From TPA_inf: Saccharomyces (taxonomy: Eukaryota), in NCBI GenBank assembly GCA_000146045.2, contig BK006937.2:252621-316620 (forward strand): a DNA stretch of 64,000 bases, read 5' to 3'. Both the position numbers and the translations under genes were made by a program. The notes below the pieces were generated by a model. That model was given only the letters and a program-made list of their open reading frames with translations, was not told the DNA's origin and ran no database searches. This document shows positions 7,691 through 64,000 of the stretch, piece after piece. The stretch's first letter is position 1. The number at the start of each line of letters is the position of its first letter.

Positions 7691-9832
7691 TTAATTTGGC
7701 GCTATTTTTTTATACTTCCAAATCCTTGCTTTACAATCACCGCTACCAGTAGCAAAAACGTTATATTCTGGACCCAGCGGAGACCCGTTTGCCACAGCCA
7801 CAGATATAACTGAATTCCTATGACCTTGCAACATCAATAACGGATTGCCGGATTTCTTATCCCAAAACAGGACACCACGATCTTTGGAACCGGACAAGAT
7901 GTACTCATCATTTTGTGTGGTGGCCACGGACAATACAAAGTCTTTATGCCCGATATACGTAACTTCACAAGTGCCGGAATTTGGAGTTTTCGAATCGCTC
8001 TTGTTGTTTGCATTCTGCAAATTCCAGAGCTTAACAGATCTATCTAATGAGCCGGATACAACGCTTTGTCCATCTCTAGTGAAGACAACGCTATAAACAG
8101 AGTCCTTGTGGCCTGTACCGGATTCGTTTTCCGAATCTAGTCTTTCCACCAAGAATCCGGTCTCGGAATCCCAAACTCTCACAGCACGATCTAGAGAACC
8201 AGCAGCGATGTATTTACCATCACCTGGTGATACAGCGACGGTGGTAACACCATCTTCAATGGATAAAGTCAATGAACACTGGCCTGTACGTAAGTCCCAA
8301 ATACGAACGGTACGGTCACCAGAACCGGAGACTAATTTGTCACCTGAGGGAAAGTAGTCCAATGAATAAATATCTTGTTCGTGGCCTTGAAGAATCATAA
8401 CAATCTTTCTATTTTCAATATCCCAAATTCTAATCAGTCTGTCTTCAGCACCTGTTGCCAAAAATTTCCCATCTGGAGAAAAACACACTGAACGGATATA
8501 CAAGTCGGATGATGGGGAAGACGAAGTGTTCAGGTTTTCCACATCTTTTGCCAATTCTGCTGCCGAAGTCATCGCTGTGGTAGTAATTGTGGTGGTAGTA
8601 GTGGTTGTCATTGTATTGTTATCCGTGGACGTGGTGGTGTTATTTTCAGTGATCGAATTTCGATGGTTATTGGCAGCAGAATCGTCAGATAGACGGGCCA
8701 CCAGAGAACCATCTGAAACGCGATACACTTGAGTAGTTTTGTTGCAGCCTGTGGCTAAGTATTCACCATCGTTACTGAACTTCACGCAACAAACAACTGA
8801 AGTATGATCCAAAGATTTGTGTAACTCAACGTCAATTTCTCTTGGTAGTGCCGGGTTGTATAAAATATAATAATCATTTGTTTGCTTCTTCAGAGCATCG
8901 GGAACAGACTGGGAATCTAGATCCAAAAGGAAAGGTGGGATAGGTTTAGAGTGGTTTGCTCTTTGATTATAAGGGACTAAGTAGTGATCCTGGTGCAAAC
9001 TAGCCGGGGTGGCGTCTTCCTCCTTAGGTTTGATTTCAGTTTCAGTTGCGGTGGTAGTGGTGGCCGTGGTGGCGGATCCGGTGTCATTTATCTTCGAGGT
9101 ATTATTATTTTCCGGTTCAGTTTCTTTCAACGTAGATTCAGGTGCCTTGACAGAGGGTAAAGTAGTGGTCTCTTTAGAAGTAGGAGATCCGTTGATGGCT
9201 GTGTTACTCAATGGTGCCACGGAAACCTGGGGAGGTGGTTGCTGTTGTTGAAGTTGCTGCTGTTGCAGTTGCTGTTGTGGTAGTTGTTGTTGGGCGTTTG
9301 AGGACACCACAGGCAAAGTGGTGGTAGGCAACTGTGAGCCAACCAGATTAGGACGGCTAGCTTGTACTGGGAAGGCCGATGGCGAACCAGTAGTTGTGTT
9401 TGCTGCTGGAGTGGCGGTGGCCGAAGTAGTAGCCGGTGGTTGTTGCGCAACTGGAACAGATGCAGATGCAGCGGCTAGCTGCTGCTGTTGCTGTTGTAAA
9501 TGCTGCTGGACCTGTTGCTGCTGTTGCTGTTGCCGCTGTTGCTGGACGGTCAAAGATGCAATTTGATGGTCTCTTTGCTCCAGCCCTAGTTTCAAGTGCT
9601 TGATCTCTTCTTCGTACGCGTCCTTCATTTTCCTGTGAGTTAGTTCCAGTTCGTAGACGGTGTTTCTTATCTGCTGCATCTCAGCCAGCTGCTGGTTCAT
9701 TTTGAAATCGTAATCCTTTTGGTTTTGAAGACGGTAGGTATTTGCCTCTTGTGAGACTTGGAGAAACTCCTGTCTGATGGCATCGAGAAGCTCATTCAGC
9801 TTATTCTGCGTATTCGAAACGCTGGCAGTCAT
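7691..9832 (-). CDS. TUP1: General transcriptional corepressor with WD40 repeats
   Basis: 713-aa ORF with an N-terminal coiled coil, poly-Q tracts encoded by CAG/CAA runs at about 9210-9560, and seven C-terminal WD40 repeats (GH...WD motifs). Confidence 0.95.
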
Positions 9833-10771
9833 ATTGGTTTGGATGGAAAGCTGATTTCTTTCTTCCCCTGCTTATCAAAAAAGACAAAAAAACAATAGAA
9901 AAAGAGTAGTGGTGTGCGAAAGGTAACTTGGCGTGAAAGAAAATTAAACAATTGCAGAAGGACAGATAGAGGGGCACGTGTTCAGCCAGTTGTTCTTGCT
10001 TCGCTGATGTTTATCAATTGGGGGTAGATGGGGGAATTTCTCTCTATTTGTTTACTTATGTACTTGTTATTTTGTTTTGTTGTTTGTTGCTTTGACGGGA
10101 GAGCTTTTTAATTTTTTCGCAGTTTTTCAGTGTTTTTTGAAAAGTACGAAAAATTAAGGTCCGTCGGTAGCGATAATGTAAGAGGGTTCTGTCTCTAAAA
10201 ATGTTAGGGTGAAAGTTCCAAAAAATTATTAACTCCTAGATTGCTCAGCCAAAAAGAAGGGTAAATTAGGGCTTTCCTGGTTTATTTATTTGTTTATGTT
10301 GTTCTTATATACATATGTTTATGTCTTTTTATGTACAAATAATGATGTTTACAATGAAACATCTGTTATGCTATCAAAAACGTCAGCGCATTGTTTTATA
10401 GCTGAAGAAGTTACAACGGATAACGGTCTGATTTGCGGCCTGGCAATGCTTGGTAAAACTAAATATCAATTTTACGAATTATTTACTGTATATAGTATTC
10501 AGTCCCTCACTCAACTGGCGTCAAGAGTGAAGAAGGGCGGCCTCATTATGGCTCGCCTTATTCTGTTCACCCTCTGCGCTCTTCCCGTATTATTTCATTT
10601 TATTTTGTTTATGCTTCAATATCTTGTATTTGTTTACATTGAAAAATGATTGGAAAAAGGTCACATTGAAATCAAAACAGTGAAGAAGCAGACAGACAAG
10701 AAGGTCATTAGATAGATAAACAGGAACAATAAAAAAAAGAAAGCGAAACAAGACAATCCAACGTGCGCAAA

Positions 10772-42863: not shown

Positions 42864-42936
42864 GCTTCTATGGCCAAGTTGGTAAGGCGCCACACTAGTA
42901 ATGTGGAGATCATCGGTTCAAATCCGATTGGAAGCA
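42864..42936 (+). tRNA. tT(AGU): tRNA-Thr (anticodon AGT)
   Basis: A 73-nt sequence, gcttctatggccaagttggtaaggcgccacactagtaatgtggagatcatcggttcaaatccgattggaagca, with an acceptor stem pairing GCTTCTA with TGGAAGC, a D-loop AGTTGGTAA and a T-loop GGTTCAAATCC. This gene is the known right-hand boundary element of HMR heterochromatin. Confidence 0.9.
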
Positions 42937-46597: not shown

Positions 46598-48211
46598 CTT
46601 TTTTTAATTTATCTTGGCAAAACGTGGGGCTGGAACTTTTGAAACGCACTGCAACATCTGTGGCTGTACAGTCAAGAAAAGTAAGTACTCATCGTCATGC
46701 TCTAATGTGTATATGGTATTTGTGGTGCAGACACCATTAGAAGTATAGTTCACGAAATGATGACACGATAGCATGTGCTTTTCGACGGCTGATAACCTTG
46801 TATTCTCTTATTTTTGTATTCTTTTCGTAAGCGGCATTTGTTTGCAGAACCTTATCGCAGATATCGATAAACATTTGTTGACAATTCTTTTTCGCTCCCC
46901 TTCTTTTTGTTTATCTTCGTTATATTCAATAGTCTACATACACTAACCGTTGAATTGTTGCAAACAAATACTAATAAAAATCTATATATAGTAAATTGAA
47001 GATGTACTGATCAGTCTATCATTGTTTAGTGCACCCAGACTCGAATCTTAAATACCACTTTACACACCTACTAAATTTTGTCCTCACAAAATGAAGACAG
47101 GATTCAAAACCGATTAATAGTAGCAGAAACTAAAAAAGTACGAATATTAGTAAAATTCATGTTCTTGAATCGAGCTACTATCTTTGTCGGGAGGGTAAAC
47201 GATTATAACTCAAAATGACTGGAACTGGTGATTATTAATTTTTACGTTTCCTGTGCCAATAAGCGGAAGATAAGAGGATAGAAGAAAAGAAAGGCGGCAC
47301 TTGGCGAACTACAATGGCGATTATATTCATGGCGATTATATTCATACAAAGGTAATGGAGGCCTCGGATAATGGACAATATTGAGAAAATCCTTATGCTT
47401 ACTTCTCTTAATAAAAAATAGACACAGCCATTTATTATGCGTAAAAAAGATTACCCACTTGTCTTCGATGCGTGCTGCTGCCAATCAACCTTTTGAGCGG
47501 AACTTCGAGCTCGCAATGCGTCTGGAATGTTGCTAGAGACAGTCTTGGTTATCTGTGACATGTGTTTCGTTCAGGCGTGTGAGCATCTTCTTGTTCGATT
47601 TCAAAATTACCGCCTTGACTCGTGAAACTGGATAATTCGTTGGCGTTTTCATATAAGTCGTCTGATGGCGAAAACTTTTCCTTTACTTAGCATACAGCAA
47701 ATATCCCCATTTGACGGATTTTTGAAAAATGAGCCCGCTAACCCAGAATGAACTGCATTACCAAGCATTTATGTAAACGTTCCGCCACCATCTTTGGTAA
47801 GGTATACTATTATGTTCTGGATTTAAGGTTGATTCACAATTTTTCATCACCAAAATCTGGTGGCATGCCTAGTTGTCTGGTTTCAGGCAATTTAGCCATC
47901 ATAGAAAAGCATCCTCTGTCTTGAGTTGAGAAAATGTTACTCATAGAGCCAAACAAATAAACCCTGGAATTAAAATATAGTTTAAACACAACTTCATATT
48001 ACACTGTAAATACATATCACAATAATAAATTAACGAAATAGTAAGACCTTATGTTTCTATATGACATCAGTCCCGAATAGTGTCAATTTTTTGTCGTCAG
48101 TGTCGAACATTTTTACTGTTTATTCATCATATCGTGAGGTATGTAGGCATCTTCTATTGACTTAAGCATGATAAAAGATTCACCCAAAACTGTATCGAAA
48201 TATTGATAAAA

Positions 48212-50482
48212 TTAAATTTCAAAGTCAAACTTGTTTTCAATGGTTGCTATTTTCTTACCATTCGAGCTCTCCCTCAGGATTTTTTCACATGGAATGTTCA
48301 TGGCCTCAATTTCCATGGGCTTTTTGCATTTATCTCCTTTAATTAATTGTAATGGCTCTAATGATACAGTTTCGCCATTAGCTTTGTCACATATATCGGA
48401 AAGGGCAATCTGATCATAATCTGGTATACAGTCACCCTTTGCATCTCTAACAAATTCAGAAGAGCATTCGTAGTCGGATTCAGTACAACTGTCACAAGGT
48501 ATTTCATGCAAAATCATATCTTTGAATGTCCTTTTTACCAAACAACGGGCGTCCTGTTTCCTCCTTTTATACATGTATTTGGCGCCATTAAGGCATTTCC
48601 CATCTGCCAAATTCCAGTCTTCGAAATCTTCCTCTTCACACGTTTTATAGTCAAAATGCAGCAGAAAAATCGATCGCATACAGGACACTTCTTGCAATAT
48701 ATGAGATGTTGGTGTTGTTTCCTTCTTGACTAGCCGTAGTAATGAGATGTCCGCTTAAAATAAATTTTGAGCCTGATCCATCTGGCGTTGTATTAATCAA
48801 CTCTAATGGATGGATATAAAATAAAGCGTCAACAAGCTCATATTGATTCCATGTTCTACCTTGGTCCAAGGAAAAATAAAGTTTGGATTGTACATCACCA
48901 TCTTTATATGAAGGAGACGGGATATATACAATAATATTTCCCAGATCACCAGTAGCATATAATCCAGAAGAATTATGGGCCACCCTCCATGTTAGACCAC
49001 CGTCTCTAGAAATGAAAGTTTTTCGGTCCTTCCGATCGAATTCATTGTCATCGCCAACAGAACCTGTCATTAATATGATCCCAGCAGAAGGATTTGAAAG
49101 TTTTAGATTGTAAAAATAACCCTGAAGTGAACATCTCTCAGGCCTAGTGATATCACAGCCGAACGAATCGGCATTTTCTTCATCAACAACTTTCAAATTT
49201 GACCATGTGAGGCCGTTATCAACGGATATTTTGGTTTCTCCTCCGGCTATATTTTCAGTATAGTTTACTTGGTGATTAGAATAGTCAATGGAAGGATGAA
49301 ACGATCCAAATATTGTCCCTTTCAAGAAATCAGGAAAAGTGAGCCTAAAATTTCCAAACTGATGGTTTGGTGTCCATTCAACAGGTGAGAATTTCAACCC
49401 TTGCGAATCTGATATGAAAATCTCTGAGAGATCTGGATCAGCATTTTCCTCATTTGTGATTTCTGTCGATATAAGAAGGATGATCCTTCCGATAGAATCT
49501 TCACGAATTTTAATCACTTTGACGTGCCGTAATTGAGTAGGCAGCTGTGCCTTTTGAAAAGTAGATGCATCATTGGATATCCAGATGTCCGTAGATGACA
49601 TCTCGTTATGCCCGTCATCTTGCGTTAAAACGACCACATATGACTTCAATATCTTGTATTGAGTAACAATCTTATCTTTAAATTCATCAAAATCTTTAAA
49701 CGTTTTGCCTCCATCACTACTGAAAGCCAACTGTGTGTAGGTAGCAGTTAAGCGATATTCTTCATCGTATTCACGGTTAGAGAACAAACAGAGTATCGAA
49801 GTATCATTACCAGTAAAGTCAGAATCCTTGCTAGACTTAATGAAATGACAGCTTTAAGTTGTTATATCGTCGTCTTTTTTCTTTTCCAAGGAAGGTTTAA
49901 TTTTAAAAAAGGATTCCCATCATTGCTCAAGTAAATTTCACTTGGGTCATATAAAACGTCTGCGTCTATCATATAGCTATAGCAATTCGCAATAAGAAGT
50001 TCTTTGTTTCTAGGATGAGTAGTTATAAAACAGTCGCCATCTAAATATTCTTCTGATGAGGGTATAGTTAAAGCCCTCCATGACTCCCCACGGTCGTCGG
50101 TAATGTAGAATTTGGGTGATTCACATATAAAAGCGAAACCTCTTTCCTGTCCATGGAAAGGATCAACAGTAAATCTGAAAATGCGCTCTTCAATTTCTTT
50201 GACCGTTTCCCAATTTTCTCCAGCGTCGAAACTTATCCATACAACCCCCCAACCATCTAATCTGATAGAAGTGTTGGAATCATCAAAACTCACTAGATTA
50301 AATGATGTTTCTATAGGAGCCTCCGTTACTTTTGGGACAAATTTCTCTGCATTGAGTAGCGGAAGTAGTATAATTACCCAAAGAGTATATATGGCATGAA
50401 GTAATATCATAATTGAGGATCTCTTACCTTTTCTTAGTTCAAAGTTTTTTTTCAAAGCTCGGAACTTTATGCTACAATTCAA
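48212..50482 (-). pseudogene. Fragmented N-terminal half of a VPS10/VTH-family sorting receptor, as three consecutive same-strand ORFs (YCR099C, YCR100C, YCR101C)
   Basis: ORFs at 49862-50482 (signal peptide and first BNR/Asp-box region), 48651-49787 and 48212-48697 are adjacent and collinear on the minus strand, separated by a frameshift or stop. Together they cover only the first ~740 aa of a Vps10-type lumenal domain (normally >1500 aa). Confidence 0.7.
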
Positions 50483-51740
50483 TGACTAAAAAAAAGGTAG
50501 CGGATAATCTTTTGGTTGCAAATTGGCGGCATTTAAATATATTTTGGGTTGCAAGTATTCTAAAAATATTCTCATAATATTCTAAAAATATCCAGTCTAG
50601 GTAATTGCAATTATTTTGAGTCCGGTGACTTTGAGTTGACCATGTTCACTTCCTGTACAGCCATCAAGGTAACGTGTTTACCATCTAATGGAGAAAACCA
50701 AGAGATAAGACTAGAAACCTAGTTAGGATACTTGGATTTGCTAATGTCGCCAGTAGTACGATAATACCATAAAGATACGCTGTTGAACCTGATTTGTATA
50801 TTTAAAGAATGGGAATCTTTAAGGGATCATAGTCTAGAATGGTATTCTGCAGAATAGATTTTAAATGGTGAAAACTTTCCCTCACTATGTCCAATTGATG
50901 CTTTTTAGGATGACGTTAGAATTTTATTCTGGTGAAGGCACTTTTAATATGAAGATTCGTTGAAGTATCAATAACCTTTTATTGGCATACCCTTACCTAA
51001 CTGGTCTCTCTCACCTCGTGATGTTACGAACGCCACGATTATTCTCAAACTAGGTAAAGATTTTTTCTTCAAAATTAGTGGGAAAGACTCGACAGACCCG
51101 CTTACCAGGTATTCTTTCTAAACAATAGGGTTTACCAGTACCCCTGAAAATGATAATGCCCATGTGCGGCTGATCGCGTTAACTACGTATGCAGTTGAAT
51201 CAAAGCCATACCACAGAAAATGGTACAAGAGCCCACTGGATAGAATAGTGCTGGCTATCAAACCAATATTTTCTTTCCAGCTCTTGGGGGACCTCTACTG
51301 CGTTATATCGTAGTTTCCATTCAGCCTGCTTATCGCCTTAGGAAAAGGGAATGTAAGAGGCAGAAAAGTGCGGCGCAATCGTTCGGACAGCGAGCCGCTA
51401 TTATAGGTAAGAATTCTTAAAGAGCTTCGCCGGATATTATTACAGTGTATTAAATTTCGCCAAGTCTTTGCCAATGGAAATAGGTGCATAATTTTATGTG
51501 CTTGGTACATATGAGTTCAATAGATATGTAGTAGTTGGATAGTAGATAGTAAGGATATATAATCATGGAAGGGTGACGCACAACAAATCACATAATGAGT
51601 TATGATTTTCACTGTTCTCATCTGTTTCCCCTACAAGGCGTGATCAATAACAAACAATTTCATTAAAAAAAAAAAAACCAAGTCACTCTAACATACGTAA
51701 TAACTGTGTATACAAAAGAAAAATAATATCTGTTCGTCAT

Positions 51741-52847
51741 CTAGTTTAATACGGCAACTAGTTTTTCACCAGAGTTCTTACCGATTTTAATGTCTTCCAG
51801 GATACGAGGAACATCGTAAAGCCCGTTCTTATAGACCCTTGCTGGAATATGGTGAATTTGCCCATCACTAATCTTTGGATTGATGAACTTGACGAATTCG
51901 GTGGCAGCTCTCCTGGCTTCTGGGTCAGCAGGGAAAGTAATGCCACCAAATGGTACTTCATGGCCGCCTATTGAATACAGTCTTGTTCTGTCAATAGTGA
52001 CATTTTGCCTCCTATTCTCCTTTTTGACGTTTTCTTCTGTCAAATTAGTTAATTCGACAACGGTAGCATCCTGTTTATCGGCCGCACATTTGTACACTTG
52101 TTGAAGCGTATTTTGATTCGCGACACAGTCGACTAAATACGAGATATTGTTGTACTTGTGTTTAATTTGTTCTACCACGTCAATATCATGGTAATCAAAT
52201 AGTTGATCAGCACCATATTCTTTCAACAGTTTTTCGTGTTTCCGAGAAGCCACAACAATGATCTTGGTGAAGCCATTCAATTTATTGGCTAATTGGATGA
52301 GCGACTGACCTACTGCAGTTGCACCGCCCCATAATAAGATGGGGCCGTTTCTTTGTGGGGTTGATGGCTCCCACTTCAGGTTCAAGCCCAAGTTATAGGT
52401 CAACACCAAGCCAGCTGTGGTCAGTGACACTGGGATAGTGGCTGCCCCTTCCAAAGACCTGACAGGGCCGGCAGGTAGAACATCTTCACCCAAAAATTTG
52501 AGTTCATTGGGTGATTTGTAGGCAACCACAGTTGAAATAGCAGAATATTCAGCAAAAGCACCATTGGAAGGAAACCTTACGGAAGATCCGTGAATGAACC
52601 CATAAATATAATCACCAATAGAAAAGTCTTTAGGATCGACGGCTGGGCCCAATTTGACAATTTGGCCGGCAGCGTCACATCCCAGAATAGATCCTTGAGG
52701 CCCGACCTTGTAGTCAATGTGTGCCCAATCAGTCGGGTTACCAGCAACAGCGAGTGTCTTAATCAATACGAATCCTTCTTCCAATTCAGGAATGGGAACG
52801 CCCTCTTTGACAACCGCTTTACCGTCTTCAATGACGACAGCCTTCAT
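51741..52847 (-). CDS. Zeta-crystallin/quinone-oxidoreductase-like medium-chain dehydrogenase (YCR102C)
   Basis: 368-aa ORF with the MDR fold, a Rossmann GGATAVGQ motif and paralogy to subtelomeric YLR460C and YNL134C. Confidence 0.8.
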   Translation of the reverse strand: MKAVVIEDGKAVVKEGVPIPELEEGFVLIKTLAVAGNPTDWAHIDYKVGPQGSILGCDAAGQIVKLGPAVDPKDFSIGDYIYGFIHGSSVRFPSNGAFAEYSAISTVVAYKSPNELKFLGEDVLPAGPVRSLEGAATIPVSLTTAGLVLTYNLGLNLKWEPSTPQRNGPILLWGGATAVGQSLIQLANKLNGFTKIIVVASRKHEKLLKEYGADQLFDYHDIDVVEQIKHKYNNISYLVDCVANQNTLQQVYKCAADKQDATVVELTNLTEENVKKENRRQNVTIDRTRLYSIGGHEVPFGGITFPADPEARRAATEFVKFINPKISDGQIHHIPARVYKNGLYDVPRILEDIKIGKNSGEKLVAVLN

Positions 52848-62989: not shown

Positions 62990-63899
62990 CACTACTATAT
63001 TATAACTTAGTGAATAAAGAGTGTTACAATAGTGAGGTGCATATTATTCTAATGTAAGGTCTGTATAAGTACGAAATATTCTGAAGTGGCATCCAGTCAA
63101 GCAAATGGTAATATTAAGGAACTTTTAAGTTAATGACGTCATGGTAGTGCTCGTACTTCAAGTCAAAGTGTTTATGTATTATGGTTGAAGAATAGAATAT
63201 TTTTATGTTTAGGTGATTTTAGTGGTGATTTTTCTGTAATATTGACATAAGTGTATATAAATTAAGTGGTTAGTATACGGTGAAAAAGAGGTATAACGTA
63301 TGTATTAAGGGAATTTATACGATATTTGGGCCCGCCGAATGAGATATAGATATTAAAATGTGGATAATCGTGGGCTTTATGGGTAAATGGCACAGGGTAT
63401 AGACCGCTGAGGCAAGTGCCGTGCATAATGATGTGGGTGCATTTGGTACTGATTTAGTGAGAATGGGCCATGGATTGGAGTGTGAGAGTAGGGTAACTTG
63501 AGAGTGGTATATACTGTAGCATCCGTGTGCGTATGCCCCATCAATATAAGTGAAGGTGAGTATGGCATGTGGTGGTGGTATAGAGTGGTAGGGTAAGTAT
63601 GTATGTATTATTTACGATCATTTGTTAACGTTTCAATATGGTGGGTGAACAACAGTACAGTGAGTAGGACATGGTGGATGGTAGGGTAATAGTAGGGTAA
63701 GTGGTGGTGGAGTTGGATATGGGTAATTGGAGGGTAACGGTTATGATGGGCGGTGGATGGTGGTAGTAAGTAGAGAGATGGATGGTGGTTGGGAGTGGTA
63801 TGGTTGAGTGGGGCAGGGTAACGAGTGGGGAGGTAGGGTAATGTGAGGGTAGGTTTGGAGACAGGTAAAATCAGGGTTAGAATAGGGTAGTGTTAGGGT
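62990..63899. repeat. Subtelomeric X element (core X plus TTAGGG-containing subtelomeric repeats)
   Basis: The core region has an ACS match TTTTATGTTTA at 63201-63211 and an Abf1 consensus CGTGCATAATGAT (reverse RTCRYN5ACG) at 63419-63431. From about 63485 there are iterated (T)AGGGTAA/TTAGGG motifs (Tbf1-type sites). Boundaries are approximate. Confidence 0.55.
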
Positions 63900-64000
63900 A
63901 GTGTGTGGGTGTGGGTGTGTGGGTGTGGTGTGTGGGTGTGGTGTGTGTGGGTGTGGTGTGTGGGTGTGGGTGTGTGGGTGTGGTGGGTGTGGTGTGTGTG
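63900..64000 (+). repeat. Terminal telomeric TG1-3 repeat tract
   Basis: Irregular (TG)1-3 TGGG repeats, gtgtgtgggtgtgggtgtgtgggtgtggtg..., run to the end of the window with no Y' element. Confidence 0.95.

Follow-up and report, generated by a model that had tools for sequence, protein, structure and literature searches.

Three reading frames at the right end of chromosome III

The window analysed here is a stretch of 64,000 nucleotides (contig BK006937.2 of assembly GCA_000146045.2, positions 252,621 to 316,620 of the forward strand) that gene order and telomere repeats place at the right end of chromosome III of Saccharomyces cerevisiae S288C. On its minus strand lie three open reading frames (ORFs), here ORF1 to ORF3, which follow one another head to tail with frames alternating from 1 to 0 to 1; the ORFs listed mechanically on the opposite strand of the feature are all short, at 95 residues or fewer. 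A sequence-only reading had proposed that the three are pieces of one VPS10/VTH-type receptor gene, and the evidence below agrees with it. The pieces are YCR101C, YCR100C (EMA35) and YCR099C, and they are already known as the broken parts of an ordinary, catalogued pseudogene. Their extents in the window are as follows.

50482-49862, minus strand: ORF1, open frame from the mechanical ORF listing, with an ATG at 50410
49787-48651, minus strand: ORF2, open frame from the same listing, opening at TTG 49787, with an ATG at 49601
48697-48212, minus strand: ORF3, open frame from the same listing, with an ATG at 48679
49862..50410, minus strand: fragment 1, YCR101C, 182 codons plus stop; signal peptide and first propeller blades
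48651..49601, minus strand: fragment 2, YCR100C (EMA35), 316 codons from ATG 49601; bulk of the beta-propeller
48212..48679, minus strand: fragment 3, YCR099C, 155 codons from ATG 48679; 10CC module with all ten cysteines

The translation of 49601-48654 matches NP_010024.1 (YCR100C of S288C, now named Ema35p at NCBI) at 100%. Published quantitative PCR primers all match the window in the order GIT1, YCR099C, YCR100C, YCR101C, YCR102W-A, ADH7, RDS1, AAD3 and YCR108C, which is the chromosomal order, and the sites for YCR101C (50151-50212), YCR100C (48977-49038) and YCR099C (48267-48330) fall within ORF1, ORF2 and ORF3, respectively (PMC10136053). The window ends in TG1-3 telomeric repeats 13.5-15.8 kb past the feature, in keeping with its earlier description as subtelomeric.

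All three ORFs match parts of the same domain rather than different, unrelated families. In Pfam, ORF1 covers positions 3-104 (E 3e-13) and ORF2 positions 148-439 (E 1e-44) of the Sortilin-Vps10 profile (PF15902), both above the gathering score, and ORF3 covers positions 36-167 of Sortilin_C (PF15901; E 3e-24). Judged by these profile matches, the ORFs are collinear on a single VPS10 domain, far beyond what chance would produce. Compared with Pep1p of S. arboricola (P0035, 1566 residues), they correspond to residues 1 to about 730 with 48-50% identity in the aligned blocks, the YCR101C region aligning to residues 1-143 (tblastn), which bears out the estimate that about half of a Vps10-type receptor is represented.

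When the three ORFs are concatenated and repaired by hand, a reading of 732 residues is obtained. Its N-terminus is hydrophobic, with a Kyte-Doolittle mean over 19 residues of 2.36 at residues 1-19, and this segment, which is conserved with Pep1p, is consistent with a signal peptide. The reading holds seven strict Asp-box motifs and has exactly ten cysteines in residues 580-732, the complement of a 10CC module, so that the signal peptide and the Asp-box-rich lumenal domain noticed from the letters alone are both found again. A hydropathy scan of the 732-residue reading gave no second hydrophobic or transmembrane segment; the same scan of the control, S. arboricola Pep1p, gave a clear transmembrane segment at about 1377-1400.

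The fold was compared on an intact allele from another isolate (P0001) and not on the broken S288C reading. The AlphaFold2 model of this allele (mean predicted local distance difference test score 75.7; predicted template modelling (TM) score 0.77) gave as its top Foldseek hits the Vps10p domains of SorLA, sortilin and SorCS2, with E values of 5e-30 to 1e-23 and TM scores of 0.54-0.72 over some 700 columns (SorLA and sortilin, matched over complete domains, at about 5e-30 and 0.6-0.72), and the sequence matches in the PDB were SorLA (3e-14) and sortilin (4e-09). On the strength of sequence and predicted structure, the three ORFs together amount to one complete first VPS10 domain, made up of a putative signal peptide, a ten-bladed propeller and a 10CC module, or roughly half of a two-domain Vps10/Vth receptor. 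The likeness to Pep1p, sortilin, SorLA and SorCS lies in this same domain, with its propeller and 10CC. Vps10p (Pep1p) itself, a sorting receptor of vacuolar hydrolases, is reportedly the receptor for carboxypeptidase Y (Marcusson et al. 1994; Cooper and Stevens 1996), and a functional receptor of the Vps10/Vth type would bind carboxypeptidase Y and PrA and sort them between late Golgi and prevacuolar compartment.

Lesions in the reading frame and the remnant downstream

With the repaired concatenation as query, protein matches in other S. cerevisiae isolates included uninterrupted proteins of 732 residues that are 96-99% identical to it. The best match, P0001, comes from strain CPI_1c (locus L001), and the repaired 732-codon reading is 99% identical to it. 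This locus is syntenic with the window, being flanked by GIT1 on one side and a dehydrogenase gene of YCR102C type on the other, and over 8.4 kb the two are 98.9% identical. In a base-by-base DNA alignment of the two, exactly three differences break the ORF, namely two 1-bp frameshifts and one nonsense change.

49916-49918, minus strand: lesion 1, one G missing from a run (GGG, where L001 has GGGG), a 1-bp frameshift; adding one G restores the frame
49854-49856, minus strand: lesion 2, nonsense TAA (TCA, Ser186, in L001), changed base 49855, between ORF1 and ORF2 and in the ORF2 frame
48653-48656, minus strand: lesion 3, one T gained in a run (TTTT, where L001 has TTT), a 1-bp frameshift; removing one T restores the frame

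The out-of-frame TAA that ends YCR101C is a product of lesion 1, and the frameshift of lesion 3 yields the TGA that closes fragment 2. Across lesion 2, tblastn reads 'ITT*SCHF', with a base difference of A>C at 49855. Reversion of all three restores an ORF of 2199 bp. The earlier count of at least two frame disruptions is thereby filled in by the two frameshifts and joined by the nonsense codon between ORF1 and ORF2.

Two of the lesions are 1-bp changes in runs of G and T, the classic type of sequencing or assembly error, and one might suppose that the frame breaks are such errors and that the gene is intact in the strain. This is very improbable, and it was rejected, because the third lesion is a substitution that creates a TAA and because the YCR100C product recurs on independent contigs and strains. 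An identical 316-residue YCR100C is found on five contigs from several independent accessions, and variants differing at one and two residues are found on 18 and 3 contigs, respectively, from RM11-1a and other strains. The truncation described below, which is common to all alleles, also speaks against error. A second possibility is that programmed recoding, with ribosomal frameshifting and stop-codon readthrough, yields one product from the three ORFs. The homopolymer runs that hold both frameshift lesions do look slippery; apart from this, nothing except the head-to-tail layout favours such a mechanism. It would require three different events on one mRNA (a -1 shift, readthrough of TAA and a +1 shift), and other strains carry different lesions elsewhere. 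Near-identical alleles lack the lesions, which are thus mutations and not conserved signals, and recoding was likewise rejected as having hardly any chance of being correct.

The gene does not end with ORF3. A recognisable remnant continues for about 760 bp, to about 47451, and a further stretch of homology precedes the ATG.

48212..48214, minus strand: premature stop TAA at codon 733, closing ORF3; ancestral state AAA (Lys)
47852..48211, minus strand: decayed first part of VPS10 domain 2, aligned by tblastn to Pep1p residues 733-821
47652..47810, minus strand: more of domain 2, shifted to another frame ('YLTKDGGGTFT*ML...'), matching Pep1p residues 848-900 at 53% identity (tblastn), with a stop at 47769-47771
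47666..47669, minus strand: junction of a single deletion of about 1.8 kb, L003 positions 8681-10473 having no counterpart (blastn to the VTH3 locus)
47451..47665, minus strand: what is left of the cytosolic tail, reading 'ENANELSSFTSQGGNFEIEQED...' and, after a change of frame, 'SNIPDAL...', from tblastn and analysis of frames and stops
50411..50900, minus strand: 5' flank (promoter region), still homologous to the VTH3 5' flank (blastn to L003)

The stop at codon 733 is a lesion in its own right. Allele P0005 (L008) has Lys at this codon and continues for 33 more codons ('...FDFEIKFYQYFDTVLGESF...') to a product of 765 residues, and both Pep1p and VTH3 read through the same point as 'FDF(K/E)IKFYQYFDT'. 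Because all three read past codon 733, the TAA at 48212 is itself premature. Residues 579-821 of Pep1p align by tblastn to window positions 48667-47852, across the end of ORF3, and within 47852..48211 there are in-frame stops at 48113-48115, 48083-48085, 48017-48019 and 47999-48001, together with an insertion of about 88 bp relative to VTH3 at about 47996-48083, seen as a gap in blastn to L003. At least six stops are present in the window from codon 733 onward. The deletion of about 1.8 kb removes the equivalent of Pep1p residues ~901-1492, which comprises the remainder of domain 2 together with the second 10CC and the transmembrane segment (~1377-1400). Beyond its junction, Pep1p residues 1493-1530 are matched by window positions 47665-47564 (tblastn), the ancestral stop would have stood at 47451-47453, and nucleotide homology to the 3' flank of VTH3 extends to about 47346. 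At the other end, homology to the 5' flank of VTH3 begins at 50900, some 490 bp ahead of the ATG. The interval 48212-50482, in which the gene had first been placed, therefore describes its ORF-bearing part and stops short of the remnant. A rearrangement breakpoint was considered as the reason for the end of the gene at 48212 and was ruled out, since sequence homologous to domain 2 and the cytosolic tail, though degenerate, is found further downstream. Just past the end of the coding remnant, at window 47331-47345, is a 15-bp tandem duplication (ATGAATATAATCGCC), present in two copies here and in one copy in CPI_1c.

The truncation is shared by all six of the other chromosome III alleles examined. 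In the five that are not chimeric, the spacing to GIT1 is 2210 bp, and the 730-bp downstream alignments of these alleles with each other and with the window are free of gaps; in a chimeric allele (L002, discussed below) the spacing is 2212 bp, and the same downstream stretch is 99-100% identical to the window. A truncation common to all alleles is older than the three S288C lesions and independent of them. The proposal of a recent pseudogene is accordingly right for the lesions that created the three ORFs and wrong for the loss of domain 2, the transmembrane segment and the tail. Similarly, the intact versions that had been expected in other isolates do exist, as uninterrupted 732-codon ORFs at the syntenic site in several isolates, but these are still truncated half-receptors.

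Relatives, alleles and gene exchange

The closest paralog of the chromosome III copy is VTH3 (YNR066C/YNR065C), near the right telomere of chromosome XIV, with an amino-acid identity of 65-68% over the first domain and a nucleotide identity of 79% that includes the 5' flank of about 490 bp. The two differ in that two VPS10 domains, a transmembrane segment and a tail can still be recognised in their proper order in VTH3, whereas the chromosome III copy has lost about 1.8 kb. VTH3 is disrupted in many strains and intact in 30 of 93 (PMC12157680). In strains BBM_1a and CPI_1c (L003:6001-10687 and L004:6001-10687) it is split into three ORFs beside a GH81 glucanase gene, the frame shifting near codon ~720 and breaking near codon ~980, yet neither domain has been lost, nor have the transmembrane segment and the tail. 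The same subfamily includes two further subtelomeric paralogs of VPS10, VTH1 (YIL173W) and VTH2 (YJL222W), which show about 60-64% identity over the first domain; both are full-length and intact in S288C (PMC12157680). Among the top entries for representatives at 50% identity, a full-length relative appeared only at 43% identity, in S. arboricola Pep1p. In contrast to Pep1p and the sortilin receptors, the S288C locus has no continuous ORF, second domain, membrane anchor or usable sorting tail.

The same locus has been described as the gene remnant REMYCR099C, or REMVTH4, in 'Core gene set of the species Saccharomyces cerevisiae' (bioRxiv 10.1101/2023.09.07.545205; PMC12157680). In that work, REMVTH4 is a PEP1 paralog on the Crick strand of chromosome III at 300104-303030 and spans YCR099C-YCR101C, with no conserved element of the right arm beyond it; relative to VTH4 of S. 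paradoxus it carries 16 indels and 5 in-frame stops and has 1833 bases deleted (PMC12157680). YCR099C, YCR100C and YCR101C are proposed there to be dubious and the entire locus to be a dead remnant. The extent mapped here, from 50410 to about 47451, and the deletion of about 1.8 kb agree with this account (PMC12157680). Going beyond it are the three lesions that separate S288C from an open 732-codon allele, the presence of open alleles in many isolates and a ratio of nonsynonymous to synonymous substitution rates (dN/dS) below 1 in that ORF. A full-length VTH4 is reported in S. cerevisiae only as an introgression from S. paradoxus, in YJM1252 and eight of 1,011 genomes (PMC12157680); no full-length S. 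paradoxus-type VTH4 was found among the word-indexed matches, and that preprint is the sole source of the introgression claim.

Across databases, the products at the locus have lengths of 765, 732, 699, 691, 607, 586, 565, 542, 538, 462 and 316 residues. CEN.PK113-7D, for instance, has a form of 607 residues, which lacks the S288C lesions and carries a different frameshift about 12 codons past the T run. Such repeated, independent disruption is as expected of dispensable sequence and excludes sequencing error as its cause.

The locus has also exchanged sequence with its paralogs. In strain BGP_1a (L002:5000-8150), the promoter and the first ~630 codons, a stretch of about 2.6 kb corresponding to window ~51100-48500, have been replaced by sequence of VTH1/2 type. 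The replaced stretch is 55-79% identical to the window, identity rises to 99-100% downstream of ~48500, and a 'Vth2p, partial' record matches the product at 91% identity. By its sequence, the BGP_1a locus is a chimera produced by ectopic gene conversion or recombination between subtelomeric paralogs. The protein cluster at 90% identity that contains the chimeric allele (P0021) also includes Hxt11/Hxt12-type hexose transporters and fragments of Vth2p. This mixture probably stems from gene models fused across neighbouring subtelomeric genes, and the sizes of clusters of such proteins are thus not allele frequencies.

More distant relatives are found in Z. rouxii, where five paralogs of about 700 residues (P0030-P0034; ZYRO0C18612p, ZYRO0F18722p, ZYRO0B00176p and relatives) consist of a single VPS10 propeller. 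They resemble the 732-codon reading in length and in having no hydrophobic, transmembrane-like segment, at 28-31% identity. They differ in a conserved C-terminus (…NEESCEPKDIQSSI) inside the 10CC region and in forming a paralogous family that looks like one of genuine genes. From their sequences, these may be a naturally occurring family of VPS10-domain proteins that are short and soluble; nothing in the comparison shows orthology or functional equivalence to the ORF on chromosome III.

As for the surroundings, a 368-residue ORF resembling zinc-type alcohol dehydrogenases and quinone reductases (ADH_N and ADH_zinc_N) lies at 51741-52847 on the minus strand, immediately upstream of the remnant and in the position of YCR102C; a gene model is missing at that place in L008. 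On the right arm, YCR102C has been described as the first gene to vary between strains, with 6 of 93 lacking it (PMC12157680). The sole tRNA-Thr(AGT) gene of the window is at 42864-42936 on the plus strand, upstream of GIT1, in an AT-rich stretch (GC content 0.30-0.32 at 38-44 kb). At the telomeric end, 63700-64000 consists of irregular TG1-3 repeats, with G-rich subtelomeric repeat sequence before them, and the GC skew in the final 2 kb is +0.38.

Decay of the locus and the case for and against a living gene

Taken together, the homology and lesions point to a duplicated subtelomeric paralog of VPS10/PEP1 in the VTH subfamily (VTH4, or REMYCR099C) that has decayed in two layers and would no longer encode a receptor, a reading to which we assign a probability of roughly 0.93. 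The locus combines homology to paralogs with disabling lesions confirmed against an intact relative, as is usual for a pseudogene, and it lacks the uninterrupted ORF, the two tandem VPS10 domains and the transmembrane segment with sorting tail of a functional Vps10/Vth receptor. Only the equivalent of Pep1p residues ~733-900 survives of domain 2, in degenerate form, and the tail fragment is out of frame. The homology, the lesions, the deletion and the allelic series are observed directly and transcription is taken from the literature; the order of the decay events is what we infer from them.

Judging from its paralogs, the product of the ancestral gene would have been a type I membrane protein in which a signal peptide was followed by two VPS10 domains, a single transmembrane segment and a sorting tail in the cytosol. 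The older layer of decay, common to every S. cerevisiae allele examined, would comprise the downstream stops, the insertion of about 88 bp and the deletion of about 1.8 kb, which destroy domain 2, the anchor and the tail. The premature stop at codon 733 would belong to this layer as well, with the qualification that the 765-codon alleles have Lys there and stop 33 codons later. What remained would be, at most, an ORF of 732-765 codons for a soluble, signal-peptide-bearing protein with a single VPS10 domain. In the younger, polymorphic layer, this ORF would have been hit independently in different strains, and in the S288C type two 1-bp homopolymer slips and one nonsense substitution would have left YCR101C, YCR100C (EMA35) and YCR099C. 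Of the S288C products, only the 182-residue YCR101C fragment, with its signal peptide, would be able to enter the secretory pathway; those of YCR100C and YCR099C, if made, would have no signal peptide to take them into the lumen. With domain 2, the membrane anchor and the tail lost, the mechanism of a cycling receptor cannot operate, and the S288C locus would presumably be without sorting-receptor activity.

Several observations weigh against decay as the whole story. Among six alleles chosen as intact (the repaired window, L001 and L005-L008), pairwise dN/dS of the 732-codon part is 0.13-0.47. Of their 60 segregating sites, 26 are synonymous and 34 nonsynonymous, a nonsynonymous fraction of 0.57 where 71-78% would be expected under neutrality (binomial p 0.0002-0.02, depending on the assumed transition bias). 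On this polymorphism, the N-terminal half does not appear to have drifted freely over the whole divergence time of the six alleles. The YCR099C-YCR101C region is also transcribed, and pieces of it have been used as reporters of heterochromatin boundaries (PMC10136053, PMC8675926). Phenotypes have been reported for strains from deletion libraries that lack one of two of the fragments: the ema35 deletion grows better in an Oxa1-Ura3 import screen, according to the passages of PMC9579816, and the ycr099c deletion has abnormal vacuoles in alkaline medium, according to those of PMC11595888. Ema35 is not mentioned in the main text of Laborenz et al. 2021 (PMC8108515).

It is conceivable, then, that in some strains of the species the 732-765-codon ORF is still a living gene, encoding a soluble, secreted or lumenal protein with a single VPS10 domain, and that S288C has lost it recently or that its fragments keep some residual activity. 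The dN/dS values, the deficit of nonsynonymous polymorphisms and the phenotypes just described would fit such a gene, as would the at least ten distinct alleles in which the 2.2-kb ORF is open at protein differences of up to about 3.5%, and the Z. rouxii paralogs offer a precedent for short soluble forms. On the other side, many independent disruptions segregate, the alleles behind the dN/dS values were picked for being intact, and the locus undergoes gene conversion from functional VTH paralogs, which can bring in variation that looks selected and can inflate synonymous divergence (dS). Indeed, dS in the ORF is 0.02-0.04, compared with a divergence of 0.011-0.016 in the adjacent remnant, and this excess suggests imported variation. 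YCR100C and YCR099C, without a signal peptide, would have the lumen out of their reach, and the passages of PMC9579816 and PMC11595888 contain no complementation of either phenotype. On balance we consider a living gene unlikely. The fuller version, in which the ORF has been neo-functionalised as a soluble product, is under selection in part of S. cerevisiae and is lost recurrently (in S288C through the three recent lesions), is if anything a shade less likely; in that case the ema35 and ycr099c phenotypes could reflect residual activity of the locus or its transcript. Returning to the decayed VTH4 paralog, transcription, phenotypes and dN/dS may mean that 'dead' overstates the condition of the N-terminal half in certain strains; none of them is an argument that a receptor is encoded here.

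The value of these results is mainly one of bookkeeping, the locus being a textbook case of how subtelomeric receptor paralogs are born, exchanged by ectopic conversion and lost. Deletion collections, screens and expression studies handle YCR099C, YCR100C (EMA35) and YCR101C as three distinct, uncharacterised genes. Caution is called for here, as all three are fragments of one truncated VPS10-family gene, and any phenotype ascribed to them should be read, and its complementation designed, accordingly. If it is true that the 732-codon form functions in wild isolates, the locus would provide a small example of a soluble receptor fragment that was kept after truncation.

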